Below, piece after piece: positions 1-8,602 of a stretch of 64,000 bases of DNA. The translations under genes were made by a program, and so were the position numbers. The DNA comes from Escherichia phage ECBP1. Under the pieces are notes generated by a model, which saw nothing but the letters and a program-made list of their open reading frames with translations, had not been told where the DNA came from and did not search any database. The stretch lies in the sequence record NC_018854.1; one strand, written 5' to 3'. Position 1 is the first letter of the stretch. Each line of letters opens with the position of its first letter.

Positions 1-137
1 TTAGCAAAGATGCTACCGTAAGGAATAGTAGTGGTAATCCTAACCATCCGGACTATTACTCTAGTATAGCACGCATCATCACCAGAAAGCCCCATCTTAC
101 AGGATAACTTACACAATTAAGCTCTTAAGGATATTAA

Positions 138-464
138 ATGAAACTTACTAAGATAGGTTATGCTGATGGACCTATTTCCACTACCCATACAACCTTACAA
201 GACCTTGTACCTGGTAGACTCACTCCTATTATCCTAGTACCAGATGATCAGACTCTACACGAAGTTAAAGGATTAGCTTTACTACTAAATAAGGTGACTA
301 TTGTAGAAGTTCTTGAACCAGGAAAGGAATTACCGTGGTCCTCCTACATGTACTCCCCCTGGCATGTGAATACGGATAAGTACACTCTTACCTTTGGTAT
401 TACCAGTGAACTGCAAACTCCTCACTTGGTATATGCTTCCTCCTATTTAACTGCTTATAAGTAG
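138..464 (+). CDS. hypothetical protein (weak call; may be non-coding leader)
   Basis: 108-aa ORF from the track; unusual composition; no recognisable motif; repeat-rich non-coding DNA follows at 480-660. Confidence 0.25.
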   Translation: MKLTKIGYADGPISTTHTTLQDLVPGRLTPIILVPDDQTLHEVKGLALLLNKVTIVEVLEPGKELPWSSYMYSPWHVNTDKYTLTFGITSELQTPHLVYASSYLTAYK

Positions 465-665
465 GATAGCTATCATATTTTTGCATATGAAAAGTAGCAT
501 AGTTATGTATGGCTACAGTGGTGTGGCTGGGGCTACACCCTTACACTCAACCATCCCCCCCGGTATGTTGACGGTGTAGCCACTACCCTACCCCACCTTA
601 CACGTTACACATGCTCCGCATGTTATGGACATGTCGTCCTATCATCAACTATTGGAGCTATCATC

Positions 666-989
666 ATGACTACTCAAGCTACTGTACGTATGACCGCAGG
701 AACTTTACTTGGTACTGTTAACTCAGCTGCTACTACTGTTGCAGATACATTCGGTACAGCAACTAAAGCAGTAGGTATGCTTAATTCATATGTTAGTACG
801 ATGGCAGAGAAACAAGCCATTCGTACTAAATTAGAAATGCATACCTTTGTTAATAAACTGGCAGAGGAAACAGCTATGACTGAGACTCTGCGTAAGAAAA
901 GTATCGAGGAATTCTGCAAGGATTCAGAGAACGCTCGAATCTATAACGCAGAATATTCCAAAGTAATTGACATCCTGACTAAAGACTAA
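666..989 (+). CDS. hypothetical early protein
   Basis: 107-aa ORF; intrinsic terminator immediately downstream (998-1023). Confidence 0.5.
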   Translation: MTTQATVRMTAGTLLGTVNSAATTVADTFGTATKAVGMLNSYVSTMAEKQAIRTKLEMHTFVNKLAEETAMTETLRKKSIEEFCKDSENARIYNAEYSKVIDILTKD

Positions 990-997
990 GTCACATA

Positions 998-1023
998 GGA
1001 GACTCTTCGGAGTCTCCTTTTAT
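998..1023 (+). terminator. intrinsic terminator
   Basis: Stem ggagactc / gagtctcc with ttcg loop, followed by ttttat. Confidence 0.6.
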
Positions 1024-1076
1024 AAACATTAGATAGATAGTCAAAAGTAGATAACTATCTACTTTGGAGATAGATA

Positions 1077-1415
1077 ATGGCTAAGTACATTTGCATAAAA
1101 TCATTAACTAAAGATGTTCCTGTAGGAACAGAACTGGTAGGAAAATACCACTCACCAGGAAGATTCATTCTTACTGAAGATAGTAAATTAAAGTGTGTAT
1201 CAGGAACAGGACCACGTTGGTACAAAGATGACCAACTACCTCTTGCAGGTGCTTTATGGGTATGGCAATGCCAAGACCCTATTAAAGCTTTAGAACGCTA
1301 TGAGAAAGCTGTTCGTGCCCATGAAATGCTTGGTGCTCAAGACCCGGAAGATTGGCCTGGAATTGAGAAAGAGTATGAATCTGCTAAGGCAGAATTGCTT
1401 AATCATTTGTATTAA
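1077..1415 (+). CDS. hypothetical early protein
   Basis: 112-aa ORF; palindrome gtagat-aact-atctac just upstream; hairpin 1432-1450 downstream. Confidence 0.5.
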   Translation: MAKYICIKSLTKDVPVGTELVGKYHSPGRFILTEDSKLKCVSGTGPRWYKDDQLPLAGALWVWQCQDPIKALERYEKAVRAHEMLGAQDPEDWPGIEKEYESAKAELLNHLY

Positions 1416-1431
1416 AAACCAAGACCGCAGG

Positions 1432-1450
1432 CGTTGTCTGCAAGACAACG
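1432..1450 (+). promoter_or_regulatory. 8-bp stem / 3-nt loop hairpin (candidate N4-type vRNAP promoter hairpin or terminator-like element)
   Basis: cgttgtct-gca-agacaacg perfect inverted repeat; no T-tract after it. Confidence 0.3.
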
Positions 1451-1570
1451 ACGCTCCGCGTCTTATGGATGATGTAAATGCATCCACTAATCATTGAACT
1501 TTTATCCCTTTGTTTGGGTGTTCTCACCGACGAGTTCACCCGTAAATCACATAAATCTGGAGAGTACAAA

Positions 1571-1951
1571 ATGTCTATTCAAAAATTCACTTTCGGTCAA
1601 TCTAACACTGCTGCTTCTACTGCTAAAACTGATAAACCAAAAGCTCAGTTCTGGCTGAACATTGGTTATGTAGCTAACGAAGGCTCTGATGATGAGAAAT
1701 TCATCTCTCTGCCTACTGGTATTCCACTGGATACTCAGGAGCCACTGCCTACTAATAGCAGCAATGCTGACTTCCGTGCTATGCGTTGTGCACAGAACGA
1801 CTTGCTGGAACAGTTAATTGAGTATGCTCAGAACCTGGAACCAGGTGAAGAAGGTATCATAAACCTGCAAGTTCAACTTCGTCGTGTGAAAGCAGAGGCT
1901 GCTGACATCCCAGCAGACGAGAATAAATATGCTCGTAAACTGACTTTCTAA
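1571..1951 (+). CDS. hypothetical protein (alternative upstream start at 1478)
   Basis: ATG at 1571 preceded by GGAGA; terminator follows at 1961-1990. Confidence 0.5.
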
Positions 1952-1960
1952 TCAACCAAT

Positions 1961-1990
1961 AGACTCCCTTCGGGGAGTCTTTTATTTTTA
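1961..1990 (+). terminator. intrinsic terminator
   Basis: agactccc-ttcg-gggagtct followed by ttttattttt. Confidence 0.65.
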
Positions 1991-2091
1991 ACTAGACGAT
2001 AAGCTATTTCTACTTTTTGAGTATCTTTAGACGAAGGGTACTGAAACAGTAACCAGATAGATATAGATTTATATTAGAAGAGGAATTAACC

Positions 2092-2280
2092 ATGTTAGAC
2101 TTCATCGCTTTCTGTGTAATCTTCTACTTTCTGGGTTGGAAGTTACGTCATAAATGGTTGCTTATTGCTAAACTGCCATTCGTTACTATCGAGTGTCTCA
2201 TTGCTAGTATTAAACACAAGAAAGCAATGACTCAGTACTACAAGCAACAAGCAGAAGAGTTTGCAAAGAGGAACCAGTGA
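2092..2280 (+). CDS. small membrane protein
   Basis: 62-aa ORF with hydrophobic N-terminal segment (FIAFCVIFYFLGW). Confidence 0.4.
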   Translation: MLDFIAFCVIFYFLGWKLRHKWLLIAKLPFVTIECLIASIKHKKAMTQYYKQQAEEFAKRNQ

Positions 2281-2459
2281 TATTCACTAACATAGATGAT
2301 GCCATTGAAGAATGTATCTTTCGTAGGTATCACACTGGTGTACAGAAACGACACTATGGTGTTGTACAACTCAATGGCTATCAAATGGTTGTAAGAATTG
2401 TACGTAAGAATAAACCTTTTAACTTTATGTGGAGTACTAAATCATGCGTAAATCATTAA
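2277..2459 (+). CDS. hypothetical protein
   Basis: 60-aa ORF; start overlaps upstream stop. Confidence 0.35.
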   Translation: MIFTNIDDAIEECIFRRYHTGVQKRHYGVVQLNGYQMVVRIVRKNKPFNFMWSTKSCVNH

Positions 2460-2572
2460 TCATGGGAACCAGAGAAGACGTGCAAAAGATGAAAGAACGT
2501 CTGGTTGCTAAGAAACAGACGTCTGAACCAGTACGTAAGATTGTTACCTTCAACCATTCATGTATCAAGTAA
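2444..2572 (+). CDS. small ORF (42 aa), low confidence
   Basis: ATG-initiated basic ORF below the track threshold, ending just before terminator 2576-2610. Confidence 0.2.
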   Translation: MRKSLIMGTREDVQKMKERLVAKKQTSEPVRKIVTFNHSCIK

Positions 2573-2575
2573 CTA

Positions 2576-2610
2576 GGAGTCCTCCATTAGGAGGGCTTCT
2601 ATTTTTTATT
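2576..2610 (+). terminator. intrinsic terminator
   Basis: agtcctcc-atta-ggagggct followed by tctattttttatt. Confidence 0.6.
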
Positions 2611-2650
2611 CCTGAATAGTTAGATATGTATTTAAATAGGAGAAATAACC

Positions 2651-2959
2651 TTGAATGAAATTGTTTGTATACTTCCTCAATCAGCTAAGATAGCTGACAG
2701 GAATATCCGTATCCACTTACCCTTTCCATTAAGTAATCCATTCACTCGTAATGAAAGAACCACAGTAGAAGATGTAGAGGTAGCTTATGAAGCTTACCTC
2801 CGTAATCGTCTTATTAGTGGGGACAAACTAATTACAGCAGAGATGGAAAGGATTGCATCCTTTGTAACAGATAGTACAGGCAAGCCTGTTGGCTTAATTG
2901 GTACAGAGTCTGATGTTAACGTTATTCGTAAAATATTAATGGAGGCATTAAATGGCTAA
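2651..2959 (+). CDS. hypothetical protein, DUF4326-like paralog lacking the Cys/His motif (TTG start)
   Basis: SNPF...VEVAYEAYLRNRL resembles GNPF...VIAKYKVWLQEQI of ORF 4159-4539. Confidence 0.4.
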   Translation: MNEIVCILPQSAKIADRNIRIHLPFPLSNPFTRNERTTVEDVEVAYEAYLRNRLISGDKLITAEMERIASFVTDSTGKPVGLIGTESDVNVIRKILMEALNG

Positions 2960-3182
2960 ATATAAGGTAATACGCTTTGCAGATAATGAACGTGGTATTG
3001 GTGCAGAAGTAGAGAAAAAAACATTCTTTGGAACCAGTACATGGGTAAAAGTTAGTACACATGGACACAGTGAGTGCTTCGATAAATGGGTTAATAAAGA
3101 AACCGGTGTATCCGGTTATGCTGATACTACCCAATCAGAGATTAATGACTTCTATACTGCCAATCACATTACTAAGGAATAA
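2952..3182 (+). CDS. hypothetical protein
   Basis: 76-aa ORF; start overlaps upstream stop. Confidence 0.4.
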   Translation: MAKYKVIRFADNERGIGAEVEKKTFFGTSTWVKVSTHGHSECFDKWVNKETGVSGYADTTQSEINDFYTANHITKE

Positions 3183-3187
3183 ACAAA

Positions 3188-3409
3188 ATGTTGTTCAGCA
3201 CTAATTATGGTATTTGCCCAATTTGCAATAAAGGAAGAGGAGTTGCTAATCATAAGAAGTGTAGTCGTATATTACAGAAACAACGGAATCAGAAAGAATG
3301 GGATAAGGTGCTGAATAATCAGCATAAAGAAGAGAATCAACAGATGGCTGTTAAAGCATCTACTCAACGTATTCGCCGTATTAACTATATACAGGGGTAT
3401 CAGAAATGA
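3188..3409 (+). CDS. small basic zinc-ribbon-like protein
   Basis: CPIC...KKCS cysteine pairs; K/R/Q-rich. Confidence 0.4.
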   Translation: MLFSTNYGICPICNKGRGVANHKKCSRILQKQRNQKEWDKVLNNQHKEENQQMAVKASTQRIRRINYIQGYQK

Positions 3410-3663
3410 TTATTGCATATCCTACAGGCAAGACTGTGGAATATATGAAGCATACTATTCAAGTGCCTCACTGGGTTAAGTATATAGCATTACTACCTCG
3501 TCAATATAAGAGTGCTAATACCTCACTAATAGGATTCTCTAAAAAACCTAAGCTAACAGAAAACAATATCTGGGTATCCTCTGGGAGACAAGAAGAGATT
3601 GGTTTTTGTGATTTGAGTATTGTCAATAATAACGTTTACCTAACGCTGGAGAAAGTAGCATGA
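3406..3663 (+). CDS. hypothetical protein
   Basis: 85-aa ORF with ATGA-type overlap to neighbours. Confidence 0.4.
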   Translation: MIIAYPTGKTVEYMKHTIQVPHWVKYIALLPRQYKSANTSLIGFSKKPKLTENNIWVSSGRQEEIGFCDLSIVNNNVYLTLEKVA

Positions 3664-3851
3664 ATATTGAAAATTATGAAATCACTTTAGTAACAGCAGA
3701 CAGTAAAACTGTGATTAACAAACAATTAAATAATGACCCTGAGATGCTTAACTGGGTTGCAGAGCAATTTGCTGATGTTAACTCAGCACAGGTAACCCTA
3801 CGGAATATGTCAGGAAAAGTAGTAGCATTTACAGGCAAGGAGCCAGTATGA
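3660..3851 (+). CDS. hypothetical protein
   Basis: 63-aa ORF in a tightly packed operon. Confidence 0.35.
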   Translation: MNIENYEITLVTADSKTVINKQLNNDPEMLNWVAEQFADVNSAQVTLRNMSGKVVAFTGKEPV

Positions 3852-4162
3852 AAACTATTCTAGTAATCCATGATTCTACGTTTACTGATGTAGATAAGAT
3901 GATGCGTAATATTGATTATGTATCTCAGACAAGCCAAGCATTCAATGAAGAGTTTACTCTGTACTGCAATGCTGAATCTCCTCTGGTTCCTATCCTTAAG
4001 GAATCAGGTCTACCATTCTCTACAGAGAACTTCCCGGAAGAACCAGACTATGTAATCTCATTTATCTATGACTTACATGATGGTTCTGAAACTAGTGAAT
4101 TAGCTATGAACCAGTGGCGTAGTAAACGTCCTGTGTTTGCATTTCAGGTACTTAAACCATGA
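3848..4162 (+). CDS. hypothetical acidic protein
   Basis: 104-aa ORF with overlapping start and stop. Confidence 0.4.
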   Translation: MKTILVIHDSTFTDVDKMMRNIDYVSQTSQAFNEEFTLYCNAESPLVPILKESGLPFSTENFPEEPDYVISFIYDLHDGSETSELAMNQWRSKRPVFAFQVLKP

Positions 4163-4539
4163 AGATTATGTCATTAGGTGATGACACCAATGCTTTACTT
4201 GGTGTATCTGCACGTCCAATTATCATTGTTAATAAACATCACGGTAAATCCGGTGAGTATATTGGGCGTGGCTCACCATTAGGCAATCCATTCGTCATTG
4301 GTAAACATGGAACCAGAGAGCAAGTAATTGCTAAGTATAAAGTCTGGTTACAAGAACAGATTGATAAAGGTAATCCAGTTGTACTGGATGAACTTAATCG
4401 TCTGGGTAATAAAGCCATTGATGAGAAAGGATTAGCCTTACAGTGCTTCTGTTATCCAAAACCATGTCATGGTGAGGTTATTAAAGAGAAGCTAGTAAAG
4501 GCTATGTATAACTACTTTGTAGAAAATCTAAAAGGATAA
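4159..4539 (+). CDS. DUF4326-like protein
   Basis: Motif GRGSPLGNPF plus C-terminal CFCYPKPCHG, as I recall for DUF4326; not verified by HMM. Confidence 0.5.
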   Translation: MKIMSLGDDTNALLGVSARPIIIVNKHHGKSGEYIGRGSPLGNPFVIGKHGTREQVIAKYKVWLQEQIDKGNPVVLDELNRLGNKAIDEKGLALQCFCYPKPCHGEVIKEKLVKAMYNYFVENLKG

Positions 4540-4542
4540 TTT

Positions 4543-4893
4543 ATGAAAGAAATCTTAGTATTCACTACTAATGTACTTGGACAGCATAACAATGCTGCTG
4601 CCAAATTAGCTTATAAGAAACACGGTGCTCGCTGGGGCATGGCCTATGGTCATTATGGTAATAGCTTTGCCATTCCAGTAAAGGATGGTTATGGTAACCG
4701 TATTAAAGAAGGTGCTATCTATGGCTTCATTGAAGGCTTTATTGCATATGCATCTTCTAATCCACAATGGGATTTCAAAGTAATGGGAGATAACTTTCTG
4801 GACCCATACCTGTTCAATAATGTCACTGGCAATGTGCTATTGCCAGAAGCATGGCATAAATACTTAGGTAATGCTTACAACTATTGGAGTTAA
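4543..4893 (+). CDS. hypothetical protein, possible Rossmann-like fold
   Basis: ILVFTTNVLGQHNNAAAKLAYKKHGARWG...FAIPVKD strand-loop-helix pattern; 3 nt after the DUF4326-like gene. Confidence 0.45.
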   Translation: MKEILVFTTNVLGQHNNAAAKLAYKKHGARWGMAYGHYGNSFAIPVKDGYGNRIKEGAIYGFIEGFIAYASSNPQWDFKVMGDNFLDPYLFNNVTGNVLLPEAWHKYLGNAYNYWS

Positions 4894-5156
4894 TAATGAC
4901 TTATGAAGAACTATGGTCTGCTCAAGTCAGAGCCAGAGCACTCACACGACACGATATCTATTGTGCATTACAGAACGAATTAAAGAGTCGTACTAAGCTG
5001 GGTCACATATCCGGCTTAGTTAAAATACCTATGACTAGCCTAGTCTGGCCTTATCAGAAGAAAAGTAATGAGTTTAATGGTAATGGTCTGCATGTACGCA
5101 TCGACTACATCGGTAATGAAAACAGTATTCGTATTACCTTTTGGACTAAGCGTTAG
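4884..5156 (+). CDS. hypothetical protein
   Basis: 90-aa ORF. Confidence 0.4.
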   Translation: MELIMTYEELWSAQVRARALTRHDIYCALQNELKSRTKLGHISGLVKIPMTSLVWPYQKKSNEFNGNGLHVRIDYIGNENSIRITFWTKR

Positions 5157-5209
5157 TTAATGGCTGCTCCGCAGCTTTTGGTTATTAATCACATTTAGGA
5201 GAATAAGCG

Positions 5210-6028
5210 ATGTACTCATCCATTGAACATCAGAAGCAACTCGAAAAACTATTCAATAAAAATCAGCTCTTGCCTCGCATGAGGAAGGAATTCGAGGACT
5301 CCGAAGAAATTGACTTTAAGGCATTCGCTGCCTATTTAGAAATTGATTATAAGCTGCTCATTGATGCAATGGTGCAGATTGCCCTACATAAACGTGCTGA
5401 CATCCAAACTATGATTGGTTCTCTAATGAGTCACTCAGATGATGCTCAGTACATCGCTGACTGTCTGTATAAGATGGCAGAGAATGACTGCTTCAACTAT
5501 GACCCTACCATCGACAAGTTCGGTGTTATCTATGAGATTAGTGAAGATGTACAGATGGAACTGGAAGCATTCCAGTACCCATTACCTATCGTAAGTGCTC
5601 CTAAGCCTGTTAAGTGTAACCGTGATACTGGTTACTACGAAAGCAGAGGTAGCATCATACTTAAGAAGAATCATCATGAGATGGATGTCTGTCTTGATCA
5701 CATCAACCGCATGAACAATCAACGTCTCTGCATTAACTGGGACGTTGCTAACTACGTAAAAGACTCCCGTCCTAACATGGATAAACCCAAAGAGGGTGAA
5801 ACCCGTCAGGACTATGAGAAGCGTGTTAAAGCCTTTGAGAAGTACAGCCGTACAGCTAAGGAAGTAATGGAGTTAGTGACCAAAGAAGGTAATAACTTCT
5901 CACTGGCTCACAAATATGACAAACGTGGGCGTACATATGCCTGTGGCTACCACATCAACTATCAGGGAACCAGTTACAACAAAGCTGTACTGGAGTTCGC
6001 TGATAAGGAGTTAGTAAATGAAGACTAA
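5210..6028 (+). CDS. N4-type RNA polymerase II small subunit (N-terminal part of a split T7-like RNAP)
   Basis: 272 aa directly upstream of the RNAP catalytic-motif subunit; size and synteny match N4 gp15/gp16 as recalled. Confidence 0.6.
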   Translation: MYSSIEHQKQLEKLFNKNQLLPRMRKEFEDSEEIDFKAFAAYLEIDYKLLIDAMVQIALHKRADIQTMIGSLMSHSDDAQYIADCLYKMAENDCFNYDPTIDKFGVIYEISEDVQMELEAFQYPLPIVSAPKPVKCNRDTGYYESRGSIILKKNHHEMDVCLDHINRMNNQRLCINWDVANYVKDSRPNMDKPKEGETRQDYEKRVKAFEKYSRTAKEVMELVTKEGNNFSLAHKYDKRGRTYACGYHINYQGTSYNKAVLEFADKELVNED

Positions 6029-6179
6029 CATTGGCTCATATGAGCTATGGGTTAATGAAGAATGCGTTTACTCCGGTACATATGTGAAGTGCTTATACTT
6101 TGAAAAGCTTTACAAGCTTCAAAACCCTGAGAGTAAAACCATTATTTATAAACTATCTGCCGACGTAGTAACTGGCTAA
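6018..6179 (+). CDS. small ORF (53 aa) between the RNAP II subunit genes
   Basis: ATG overlaps the upstream stop (aATGAag); fills an otherwise empty 209-nt gap; below track threshold. Confidence 0.3.
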   Translation: MKTNIGSYELWVNEECVYSGTYVKCLYFEKLYKLQNPESKTIIYKLSADVVTG

Positions 6180-6236
6180 TCCATCCAATAAGCAGGCTCT
6201 CCATAGTGGGGAGCCAAGAAGCAAAAGGAACATAAA

Positions 6237-7454
6237 ATGCAACTGTTAACCGCTAAACAATACCTGAAAGTAGATATCGCCAATAACTATGGTCTGGATA
6301 AAAAGACATGGGATGAGCGTATTGCCTGGTTCGATGAGAACGAAGCTAACCTGCTTAATCTGGTAGATGAAGCTGAAGATTCTGCACTGTTCTATGCTGG
6401 TGTAAATGCATGGAAAGATATGAAAGCAGGTAAGCCTATTGGTTATGCCGTAGCTCTGGATGCTACATCATCTGGCTTGCAATTACTGGCTTGTCTGACG
6501 GGTGACCGCTCTGCTGCTGAACTGTGTAACGTAGTTAATTACATGGGTGAGAATGGTAAGCCATTACGTCGTGATGCTTATACAGTCATCTATCACAAGA
6601 TGTTGGACATCCTTGGTGAAGCATCTCGTATTAAACGTAGTGACACTAAGCAGGCAGTTATGACTGCGTTCTACGGCTCAGAAGCCAAGCCTAAAGAAGT
6701 ATTCGGTGAAGGTATTCGTCTCAAGACTTTTGAGAATGTAATGGAAACTGTTGCTAGTGGTCCTTGGGCATTGAACAAGTTCTTACTGCAATGTGGTAAT
6801 CCAGATGCCAACCGTTACATATGGATACTTCCTGACAACTTCCACGCTGTCATTAAGGTCATGGTTCCAGAAGTACAGACTGTTAACTTCTTAGGCAAAC
6901 CGTTCGACATTACTCGTATGGTTCAGGGTACTGAAGAGAAGACTCGTATGCTCTCTGCTAACATCACCCACTCTATTGATGGGATGGTGGTACGTGAGAT
7001 GCTGCGTCGTTGTAACTTCGACCGTGACTTAGTGGAAGCTGTGCGAGAACTCTGCGATGAAGGTCCATCAGAATATGGGGAGATTGCAGGTAATCTGGAG
7101 AAGGTACAAGAGCTATGGAGCCATTATGAGAAGTCTGGCTTCTTATCTTTATCCATCCTGGACTATCTTGACCCATGTACTATTGCTTATGTAGACCGTC
7201 AGGTAGTAGCAGATATGATTGACACTCTGCCTAAGAAACCATTCCCTGTAATGACTGTACATGACTGCTTCCGTTGCCATCCTAACTACGGTAATGACCT
7301 GCGTCGTCAGTACAATCAGATCCTGTCTGATATTGCTAAGAGTGACCTACTGGGCTTCATCCTGTCTCAGGTACTGGGGCAAGAGTTCTCTGCTGGTAAG
7401 CTGGATGACAGCCTCTGGCAGGACATTCTTGAAACAGACTATGCGTTGAGTTAA
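6237..7454 (+). CDS. N4-type RNA polymerase II large subunit (T7-like single-subunit RNAP catalytic domain)
   Basis: Motif B-like KQAVMTAFYGS and motif C-like VHDCF. Confidence 0.75.
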   Translation: MQLLTAKQYLKVDIANNYGLDKKTWDERIAWFDENEANLLNLVDEAEDSALFYAGVNAWKDMKAGKPIGYAVALDATSSGLQLLACLTGDRSAAELCNVVNYMGENGKPLRRDAYTVIYHKMLDILGEASRIKRSDTKQAVMTAFYGSEAKPKEVFGEGIRLKTFENVMETVASGPWALNKFLLQCGNPDANRYIWILPDNFHAVIKVMVPEVQTVNFLGKPFDITRMVQGTEEKTRMLSANITHSIDGMVVREMLRRCNFDRDLVEAVRELCDEGPSEYGEIAGNLEKVQELWSHYEKSGFLSLSILDYLDPCTIAYVDRQVVADMIDTLPKKPFPVMTVHDCFRCHPNYGNDLRRQYNQILSDIAKSDLLGFILSQVLGQEFSAGKLDDSLWQDILETDYALS

Positions 7455-7461
7455 TAAACTA

Positions 7462-7495
7462 GCCTCATTCCTTCGGGAGTGAGGCATATTTTTTG
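7462..7495 (+). terminator. intrinsic terminator
   Basis: gcctcattcc-ttcg-ggagtgaggc followed by atatttttt. Confidence 0.65.
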
Positions 7496-7694
7496 CTTGG
7501 AGGTAACAACTATGCTAATCCCTTTTGAAGTAATCTCTCAGTTAATACTGATAGTTTTATCTGTACTGGTTCTGTCTACAATAGTTCATGCCCACAAATC
7601 TAAGTTTGCTTATTACTACTATGGAGCATACTCACTAGGCTGCTTTGTAATGGCAGGATGGATAGCTTTTGCTATCTACTGTGTAAACAACTAA
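7479..7694 (+). CDS. small membrane protein
   Basis: 71 aa with two hydrophobic segments. Confidence 0.4.
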   Translation: MRHIFCLEVTTMLIPFEVISQLILIVLSVLVLSTIVHAHKSKFAYYYYGAYSLGCFVMAGWIAFAIYCVNN

Positions 7695-7721
7695 CCCTCC
7701 TAACGGAGGGTTTATTTTTTT
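7695..7721 (+). terminator. intrinsic terminator
   Basis: ccctcc-taac-ggaggg followed by tttattttttt. Confidence 0.65.
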
Positions 7722-7768
7722 ACATGTCATGTATACTAACTCTGCTATTTACTTATGAGGAAATTGAT

Positions 7769-8602
7769 ATGCCAACTTTGAAAGTAGGTTTTAACAAAAC
7801 CACTAATGTTGCAACTGTACTGGATGCCAGTGGTTCTATCCCAGGTGGTTCCGTAGAAGTAGGAACCTTTGTACACCCAGATGCCACTTACCCTGATAGC
7901 TTAGTTATCTTCCATGGTGTTCGTGACCTGCTGTATAAACGCTCTGCTAAAGATCCTTCTAAAGAAGGCTTCTGGCCTAACAACATCGTGGATATGCAGT
8001 CTATCTCTATTGATATGAAAGCTACTCCACGACTGACTATTGCTACCAAACTGCCTCGTGTAGTCTCTACTATCGAAGGTGAAGACATCAACTGGCACGT
8101 TGATGTAGCAGGTGGGAAAGCACCATTTACTTATAAATGGCAATTCAAAGCTGATACTGCTGGAGCAGCATTCGCTGATATTGATTCAGGTGAGAACGAA
8201 TCCGCTGCTACTGCAACACTGACTCTTAATGACGTAACAGCTACTTCTGCTGGTACTTACAAAGTGATTGTTACTGATGCTAATGGAACCACGGTAGAGG
8301 ATGAGTCACTATTAGCTGTAGGCTATTACGAAGCAAGTTCACTGGTAGCTACTCCTGATTCGCTGGCTCTGTCTGTTGCTGCTGATACAACTGCTGGTAA
8401 GACTGTAACAATTGTTGCTATGCCTGTTGGTTCATCTTCTGGTGCTTTATCTATCAAGACTGCTCCAGATTCTGGTCGTGCTACGGCTACCATTGCTGGT
8501 AACGTACTGACAGTTAAGCCAGTGGCTGCTGGTGATACTACTTCTGTAGTAGTTACCAATGGTACGGTAGATATAACTATCCCTGTTACTGTTGCAGAAT
8601 AA
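7769..8602 (+). CDS. Ig-like (Big_2-like) tandem-domain protein
   Basis: Start moved from track 7658 to ATG 7769 (GAGG RBS; track start runs through a terminator); beta-rich T/V/A repeats such as TVTIVAMPVGSSSGALSIKTAP and VVVTNGTVDITIPVTV. Confidence 0.5.
   Translation: MPTLKVGFNKTTNVATVLDASGSIPGGSVEVGTFVHPDATYPDSLVIFHGVRDLLYKRSAKDPSKEGFWPNNIVDMQSISIDMKATPRLTIATKLPRVVSTIEGEDINWHVDVAGGKAPFTYKWQFKADTAGAAFADIDSGENESAATATLTLNDVTATSAGTYKVIVTDANGTTVEDESLLAVGYYEASSLVATPDSLALSVAADTTAGKTVTIVAMPVGSSSGALSIKTAPDSGRATATIAGNVLTVKPVAAGDTTSVVVTNGTVDITIPVTVAE

Follow-up and report, generated by a model that had tools for sequence, protein, structure and literature searches.

Three genes in the early region of Escherichia phage ECBP1: a DUF4326 protein, its cysteine-less paralogue and a degenerate Macro-fold protein

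What is the function of three small genes in the early region of Escherichia phage ECBP1, and do their products act together? The 64,000-nucleotide stretch that we analyzed (sequence record NC_018854.1; below, the window) is from an N4-like coliphage of the genus Gamaleyavirus in the Schitoviridae, and the three open reading frames (ORFs), here called ORF1, ORF2 and ORF3, lie in a gene block at 2651-5156 (Table 1). The original prediction read them as two DUF4326-like paralogues and a tightly coupled Rossmann-like gene, together forming an early module that was a candidate for host takeover or anti-defence. All three ORFs were found on the + strand where that prediction had placed them. Comparison with orthologues gave ratios of nonsynonymous to synonymous substitution rates (dN/dS) of 0.01-0.15 for ORF1, 0.05-0.17 for ORF2 and 0.09-0.22 for ORF3, and because the ratios fall between 0.01 and 0.22 the three are genuine functional genes under purifying selection. 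None of the three families has a further copy in the window. Among 73 matching phage records, the phages PD38 and Bp4 are 96.7% identical to window positions 2600-7500.

RefSeq already contains the genes themselves, some of them under the label DUF4326, and the domain association discussed below has been published as a prediction. What we add is the recognition of the N4 gp14 (A1S_2505_Nterm) family as Macro, of the gp9 family as paralogues over their full length with the catalytic residues lost, of a stepwise decay of the Macro partner in the subclade of the window phage, and of a protein in which a gp14-like domain is fused to DUF4326. Computation gave the assignments to family and fold, the losses of residues, the selection, the fusions and the position in the genome. 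Our answer to the question above, which we hold to be about an even bet, is that the block is an early toolkit for processing of ADP-ribose (ADPr) and NAD derivatives and for counter-defence, in which ORF2 would be active while ORF1 and ORF3 would be conserved non-catalytic derivatives.

An intact DUF4326 protein and a paralogue without its cysteines

ORF2 matches the Pfam family DUF4326 (PF14216) with 79.8 bits (E 2.4e-22; cut-off 25) and PHROG 464 with an E-value of 1.2e-39. It carries the motifs YIGRGSPLGNPF (residues 34-45) and CFCYPKPCHG (residues 96-105), and the residues R37, C96, C98, P100, C103 and H104, invariant or nearly so across 112 diverse homologues, are all in place, so that the original assignment of ORF2 to DUF4326 holds. 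The family is very large, with at least 5,559 clusters at 50% identity matching ORF2 at E ≤0.001. In the fold comparison ORF2 came nearest to RapZ-C and then to Cys-phosphatases, a fold similarity to members of the rhodanese/Cys-phosphatase superfamily (RapZ-C/DUF488/DUF4326 clade). The result agrees with the "RapZ-C-DUF488-DUF4326 clade" that Burroughs and Aravind are said to have described in 2023, and the abstract reportedly predicts DNA-end processing for part of that clade. The likeness of ORF2 to its family thus lies in the score, the invariant residues and the RapZ-C/Cys-phosphatase fold, although ORF2 is a stand-alone protein. Its Cys/His loop (C96-x-C98-x4-C103-H104, residues 96-104) lies between a strand (92-96) and a helix (105-124), at the position where Cys-phosphatases have their C-x5-R P-loop; in contrast to the classical enzymes, the spacing in ORF2 is C98-x5-H104, with His in place of Arg.

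ORF1 scores only 16.8 bits against the Pfam DUF4326 model, which is under the cut-off. It does, however, match the same PHROG 464 as ORF2 (E 1.2e-16), BLASTP aligns the two proteins directly with an E-value of 5e-9, and a hidden Markov model (HMM) of the 112 diverse DUF4326 sequences gives ORF1 28.5 bits (E 2e-7). When 33 ORF1 orthologues were aligned to the 112 sequences with hhalign the result was a probability of 98.4% with an E-value of 6.6e-15, and because the alignment covers 99 columns the paralogy of ORF1 and ORF2 spans the whole domain and protein. The invariant residues of the presumed catalytic loop of DUF4326 are not preserved in ORF1: with ORF2 numbering first, C96 has become G84, C103 has become S87 and H104 has become D88, while C98 to K101 are deleted in the hhalign alignment; outside the loop R37 is replaced by L23 and R53 by V. 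The PL-NPF core and Y60 are retained, and the ORF1 family is strongly conserved with 33 invariant columns. ORF1 is thus the diverged paralogue lacking the Cys/His motif that had been proposed, and the outcome set beforehand as telling against it, no DUF4326 match and no paralogy in a profile-profile comparison, is not what the comparison returned. The published DUF4326 papers that we examined do not mention a Cys-less form of this kind. KH_KRR1 (E 0.046) and ElaD/SseL (E 0.017) also matched ORF1 weakly, which we took for noise.

The gp14 family as a minimal Macro domain and its decay in ECBP1

ORF3 belongs to the family of N4 gp14, as seen from a score of 82.9 bits against NCBIfam NF049995 (A1S_2505_Nterm; cut-off 45) and a match to PHROG 2072. 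Its conservation extends to roseophages, and its annotation is hypothetical only. Searches of Pfam (including Macro, PF01661) and of PDB sequences with ORF3 and 57 family members gave no match. ORF3 has the three-layer alpha/beta/alpha fold of Macro domains, and the ADPr-1''-phosphate phosphatase Poa1p was among the Macro fold matches. The family consensus reads FVFGSNxAGxHGAGAA ... SFAIPTK ... TRIGCGLAG, and we compared it with human TARG1, in a sequence verified to be identical to PDB 2LGR and 4J5Q. The hhalign alignment of the gp14 family to TARG1 has an E-value of 2.9e-5, or 8e-6 with intact members only. In it the IPTK47 of the family is paired with LITK84 of TARG1, which holds the catalytic Lys, and RIGCGLAG with RIGCGLD125R; further out, where the alignment is extended and of lower confidence, SN10-x5-GAG is paired with IS35-x5-GAG. 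Because the family aligns to TARG1 at the catalytic Lys and at RIGCGL, the N4 gp14 family is a minimal Macro domain of the TARG1/DarG class. The catalytic Lys (K84 in TARG1, K80 in DarG) has its counterpart in ORF3 as well, where K47 in IPVK aligns with LITK84.

ORF3 also differs from the known members of the class. Compared with TARG1/OARD1, ORF3 is about 25-35 residues shorter and lacks a Pfam Macro match, and the position of Asp125 in TARG1 is occupied by Ala throughout the gp14 family. DarG antitoxins (NF048014) consist of a Macro or NADAR part and a C-terminal DarT-binding domain; ORF3, with only 116 residues, has no NCBIfam match to them and no DarT-binding domain, and the window copy differs further from the DarG/TARG1 class in the loss of loop 2 and the replacement of the loop-1 glycines. 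Macro domains clamp the diphosphate of ADPr between two Gly-rich loops. In the first loop ORF3 has HNNAAA where the family has HGAGAA, and the second loop is deleted: eight residues including IGCGLAG are absent from seven cluster representatives, namely the window ORF3, P0001-P0005 and P0008. Most of these seven have also replaced G8, S9, G16, G18, T46 and D101, all of which are invariant in the other 50 sequences of the family, whereas N10 and K47 are retained in the loop-less copies. Since P0008 has the deletion and yet retains FGSN..HGAG, the residue pattern suggests that the loop was lost first and that the other ligand-binding residues decayed later. An IMG/VR contig (L003) is identical to the window across ORF3.

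Because both diphosphate-clamping loops are lost, canonical ADPr binding by the window ORF3 is unlikely. The nucleotide-binding-like pattern that the original prediction saw in ORF3 is therefore right for the family, which has the Gly-rich loops, and wrong for the window copy, which has lost them. Its term "Rossmann-like" suits a Macro fold only loosely, as neither the classical Rossmann GxGxxG nor a Rossmann nearest fold was found. In 17 of the 57 gp14-family members we also noted matches to 5-FTHF cyclo-ligase, but the best (E 0.0035) was below the cut-off and the matches were judged to be noise from the Gly-rich loops. A reading of ORF3 as a SLOG protein was rejected too, since the "DprA" and "GTP-binding" annotations in sister phages refer to a different gene. 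This gene, of 118 residues and YAcAr-type SLOG (Pfam E 2.5e-10), is found in the block of sister Gamaleyaviruses (L001 2738-3094; L002 3307-3663); tblastn gave no match to it in the window, where it is missing at the 3406-3409 junction.

The arrangement of the genes differs among relatives. The annotated order in N4 (L013) is gp9, gp10, gp11, gp12 (DUF4326), gp13, gp14 and gp15/gp16, and the HMMs that we built picked out gp9 as the counterpart of ORF1, gp12 as that of ORF2 and gp14 as that of ORF3. These are direct orthologues in the same order, and in both phages they lie between P2- and P3-type promoters and upstream of the RNAPII genes. The phages differ in that N4 has an intact gp14, separated from gp12 by gp13, whereas in the window a loop-less gp14 homologue abuts the gp12 homologue. 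Phage nithesis (L002) has an intact gp14-like Macro of 127 residues, and between it and the DUF4326 gene two extra small ORFs (4791-5230 and 5227-5610), which the window lineage has lost.

Linkage of DUF4326 to Macro domains and the proposed function

To what extent do DUF4326 and Macro domains belong together? In 29 multidomain DUF4326 proteins close to ORF2 the fused partners were YAcAr-SLOG (7), NADAR (4), DUF488-N3a (4, possibly cross-matches produced by the DUF4326 domain), DprA-SLOG (3), Macro (1) and YpsA (1), and one partner was a 3'-5' exonuclease. Protein P0237 (L066 5001-5723) consists of an intact gp14-like domain (A1S_2505_Nterm, 132 bits) fused to DUF4326, P0224 (L067 1673-2467) has a Macro of the DarG type (NF048014; E 2.5e-65 across the Macro portion) fused to DUF4326, and in P0240 the partner is NADAR. 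The contigs of P0237 and P0224, the only two looked up, are metagenomic with phage-like contexts; the P0224 gene adjoins genes for a thioredoxin and a family A DNA polymerase. The SLOG, NADAR and Macro partners reproduce the published DUF4326 fusion pattern, and the natural fusions to gp14-like, DarG-type Macro, NADAR and SLOG domains support the link between DUF4326 and Macro.

The gene neighbourhood is a weaker argument. Of the 62 viral loci at which a gp14-like gene was found, 21 have a canonical DUF4326 gene upstream, on the same strand and within 4 kb. In the window-type clade the two genes abut, as they do separately in L024 and L029; the two lineages share only about 40% identity. As predicted, ORF3 in the window starts 3 nt past the ORF2 stop (TAA at 4537-4539, ATG at 4543, with AAGGA upstream of ORF3). 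This spacing had been taken to mean tight coupling, but all nine ORFs in 2651-5156 overlap their neighbours or lie ≤5 nt from them, so that nothing is special about the pair, and in N4 gp13 intervenes. We therefore rejected the 3-nt gap as a sign of translational coupling or of a DUF4326-Macro link, on which it is uninformative because every gene of the block is equally packed.

In the mechanism that we favour, the block, which is the Gamaleyavirus version of the N4 early genes gp9-gp14, would carry a small toolkit directed at ADPr and at molecules or adducts derived from NAD. ORF2 would be its catalytic member, a DUF4326 enzyme with a fold of the Cys-phosphatase/rhodanese type, which most likely removes or transfers a phosphate on the ribose of an ADPr derivative or of ADPr-modified nucleic acid. 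Its usual partner would be the gp14-family Macro, cleaving or binding the ADPr moiety, and the early-expressed pair would neutralise NAD+-dependent immunity of the host, such as DNA ADP-ribosylation of the DarT type or ADPr-derived signals or toxins. ORF1 and ORF3, both degenerate, would probably act without catalysis, as binders, subunits or decoys. The substrate, the order of the reactions, the biological and counter-defence role and the timing of expression are what we infer here.

Published work bears on several of these steps. According to a prediction by the Aravind group, DUF4326 acts on phosphates attached to the ribose of ADPr or of its breakdown products, and the association of DUF4326 with Macro, SLOG and NADAR is an in silico prediction (PMC9503650, PMC7824862); these predictions, together with the domain fusions, strengthen the idea of an anti-defence role, which is plausible. 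Both DarG macrodomains and NADAR domains strip DNA bases of ADPr, and phage-encoded versions neutralise DarTG (PMC11825919, PMC13309987). The macrodomain AdfM of chimalliviruses, which removes the ADP-ribose added to DNA by DarT2, has been described as the first macrodomain anti-DarT factor (PMC13309987). Orphan antitoxin-like enzymes of phage counter-defence are NADAR, acting against DarTG1 (PMC11825919), and AdfB (PMC11481870). Conceptually the present case is like these, with an early phage gene that resembles the enzymatic part of a DarG antitoxin, but the fold of NADAR and AdfB differs from that of the window proteins. A further possibility is that the intact N4 gp14 family constitutes a second, unrecognised and widespread class of macrodomain anti-DarT factors across the Schitoviridae. 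It is also conceivable, with a rather small chance in our estimate, that the pseudoenzymes ORF1 and ORF3 act as stoichiometric decoys or inhibitors of host ADP-ribosyltransferase defences, binding DarT-like toxins or ADPr sensors in the manner of an antitoxin.

Several observations weigh against the toolkit. As ORF3 is without the canonical ADPr-binding loops, the ORF2-ORF3 pair, judged by these residues, cannot function canonically in the window phage itself, and the CxCx4CH loop of ORF2 could be a structural zinc site (three Cys and one His) and not a catalytic one. No experiment is known on any DUF4326 protein or on N4 gp9, gp12 or gp14, and none of the eight papers found to mention DUF4326 is experimental. 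Between the promoter-like hairpin nearest upstream (Table 1) and ORF1 there are two hairpins that resemble terminators (1961-1980 and 2574-2601), which implies either read-through or a separate promoter of the block. Moreover, at 34 of the 62 gp14-like loci there is nothing DUF4326-like within 4 kb; the neighbours there are genes of replication and of nucleotide metabolism (DNA polymerase B, ThyX, RNR, clamp and clamp loader), and 128 ORFs next to gp14-like genes that have no canonical DUF4326 close by showed no NAD or ADPr domains. Much of the co-location within the Schitoviridae could thus be inherited synteny. Carried to its end, this thought leads to the alternative that the three genes are functionally unrelated and are neighbours through block inheritance of a densely packed N4-type early region. 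The uniform packing, the gene or genes that separate DUF4326 from the gp14-like gene in N4 and nithesis, and the loci L008, L011 and L014, which have kept ORF1-like and gp14-like genes with no canonical DUF4326 nearby, all fit such an account. We still regard it as unlikely, as it does not provide for independent fusions of DUF4326 to the gp14-like domain, DarG-type Macro, NADAR and SLOG, nor for abutment of the two genes in two lineages so far apart.

Two other accounts keep a function for the block and change its nature. ORF2 might process nucleic-acid ends (2'-, 3'-, 5'- or cyclic phosphates) for repair or modification of RNA or DNA, for example in repair after host anticodon nucleases, with the Macro-like partner handling an ADPr-phosphate by-product of the Tpt1/KptA type. 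The phosphatase-like fold of ORF2 would suit this role, as would its match to RapZ-C, a domain of an RNA-binding adaptor protein, the fusion to a 3'-5' exonuclease, and phrog_30585, a "DNA repair protein" that contains a DUF4326 domain. The same can be said of Poa1p among the Macro matches, the frequency of gp14-like genes in replication modules, and the prediction that DUF4326 is a bridge to DNA modification and restriction-modification systems (PMC7824862). But neither an RNA ligase nor a Tpt1/KptA or 2H gene turned up in the block with Pfam and PHROG, and the commonest fusion partners of DUF4326 are SLOG, NADAR and Macro, which makes end processing quite improbable to us. Still less credit is due to the idea that the block serves host takeover and not counter-defence, by binding or modifying host factors (mimicry of the RapZ type, or metabolite depletion). 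Its early position next to N4 genes with known takeover roles, among them gp8, which blocks host replication, points that way, and so does the conservation of two of the three proteins although they look non-catalytic; against this stand the ADPr/NAD chemistry to which the domain partners of DUF4326 point and the lack of a sequence or fold link to any known takeover factor. PADLOC searches with ten proteins taken from the block or from sister phages gave no match, and no toxin match was found either.

Should the toolkit reading be true, the Schitoviridae would encode an early counter-measure to immunity based on NAD+ and ADP-ribose, and DUF4326, for all its size, would gain a tractable model. 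For N4, a classical model phage, the analysis gives gp9, gp12 and gp14 concrete and testable identities: an inactive paralogue, a candidate enzyme with the DUF4326 phosphatase fold, and a TARG1/DarG-like mini-Macro, respectively. The intact Macro partner of nithesis and the degenerate one of the window phage offer a natural contrast for experiment.

Putative early promoters and terminators, and the remaining genes of the block

The assignment of the block to the early region, also part of the original prediction, is borne out by its surroundings. The heptamer GCTCCGC occurs three times in the window, each time on the + strand and in an intergenic position, and each copy is at the centre of a hairpin with a stem of 5-6 bp and the 3-nt loop TCC. 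One hairpin is at 609-623 and the other two are those of Table 1, and N4 has elements with matching flanks at positions 93, 562 and 4551. The three look like homologues of the vRNAP early promoters P1-P3 of N4 (described in PMC4496689). Because the block lies between the putative P2 and P3 homologues, just upstream of the RNAPII genes, we infer that it would be expressed early.

In positions 1-8000 there are only 6 matches to promoters of the sigma-70 type compared with 24.2 ± 4.7 in shuffled sequences, a strong depletion that is consistent with transcription independent of host RNA polymerase. Strong terminator-like hairpins with T-runs number 15 on the + strand of the same region against 4.7 expected; they include, in addition to the two upstream of ORF1, those at 7462-7485 and 7693-7712.

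Table 1 Features of the gene block and its surroundings in the window.
Feature	Coordinates	Strand	Remarks
Putative P2 homologue	1449-1463	+	GACGC-TCC-GCGTC around GCTCCGC; N4 562; candidate nearest upstream vRNAP promoter
Terminator-like hairpin with T-run	2574-2611	+	12-bp stem; hairpin 2574-2601; upstream boundary of block
ORF1	2651-2959	+	102 aa; DUF4326 paralogue without Cys; N4 orthologue gp9
Five small intervening ORFs	2952-3182, 3188-3409, 3406-3663, 3660-3851, 3848-4162	+	span 2952-4162
ORF2	4159-4539	+	126 aa; candidate enzyme, canonical DUF4326; N4 orthologue gp12
ORF3	4543-4893	+	116 aa; degenerate minimal Macro-fold protein; N4 gp14 / A1S_2505_Nterm family
Last ORF of block	4884-5156	+	90 aa; matches phrog_14487 (function unknown)
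Putative P3 homologue	5162-5176	+	GCTGC-TCC-GCAGC around GCTCCGC; N4 4551; downstream boundary of block, ahead of RNAPII genes
RNAPII genes	5210-6028 and 6237-7454		directly downstream of block

ORF1 starts with TTG, with AGGAG 7 nt upstream, and the last ORF of the block overlaps the end of ORF3 by 10 nt if a TTG start is used. Each of the five small ORFs between ORF1 and ORF2 matches a PHROG of unknown function, and searches of the five in Pfam and PADLOC gave no match. The 63-residue product of 3660-3851 has a weak PHROG match (E 2.6e-4) to T4 Dmd, an antitoxin against RnlA/LsoA, and on this thin evidence could be another counter-defence protein. The 73-residue product of 3188-3409, which matches phrog_6887, has a CPIC...C pattern near the N-terminus and is possibly a small zinc-ribbon protein. 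A small ORF of 53 aa (6018-6179) lies between the genes for the two RNAPII subunits, and in some related phages an HNH homing endonuclease is annotated somewhere in the early region. The cumulative GC skew of the window has its maximum at about 36 kb and declines thereafter, which suggests a switch of coding strand near 36 kb, as in the late region of N4.

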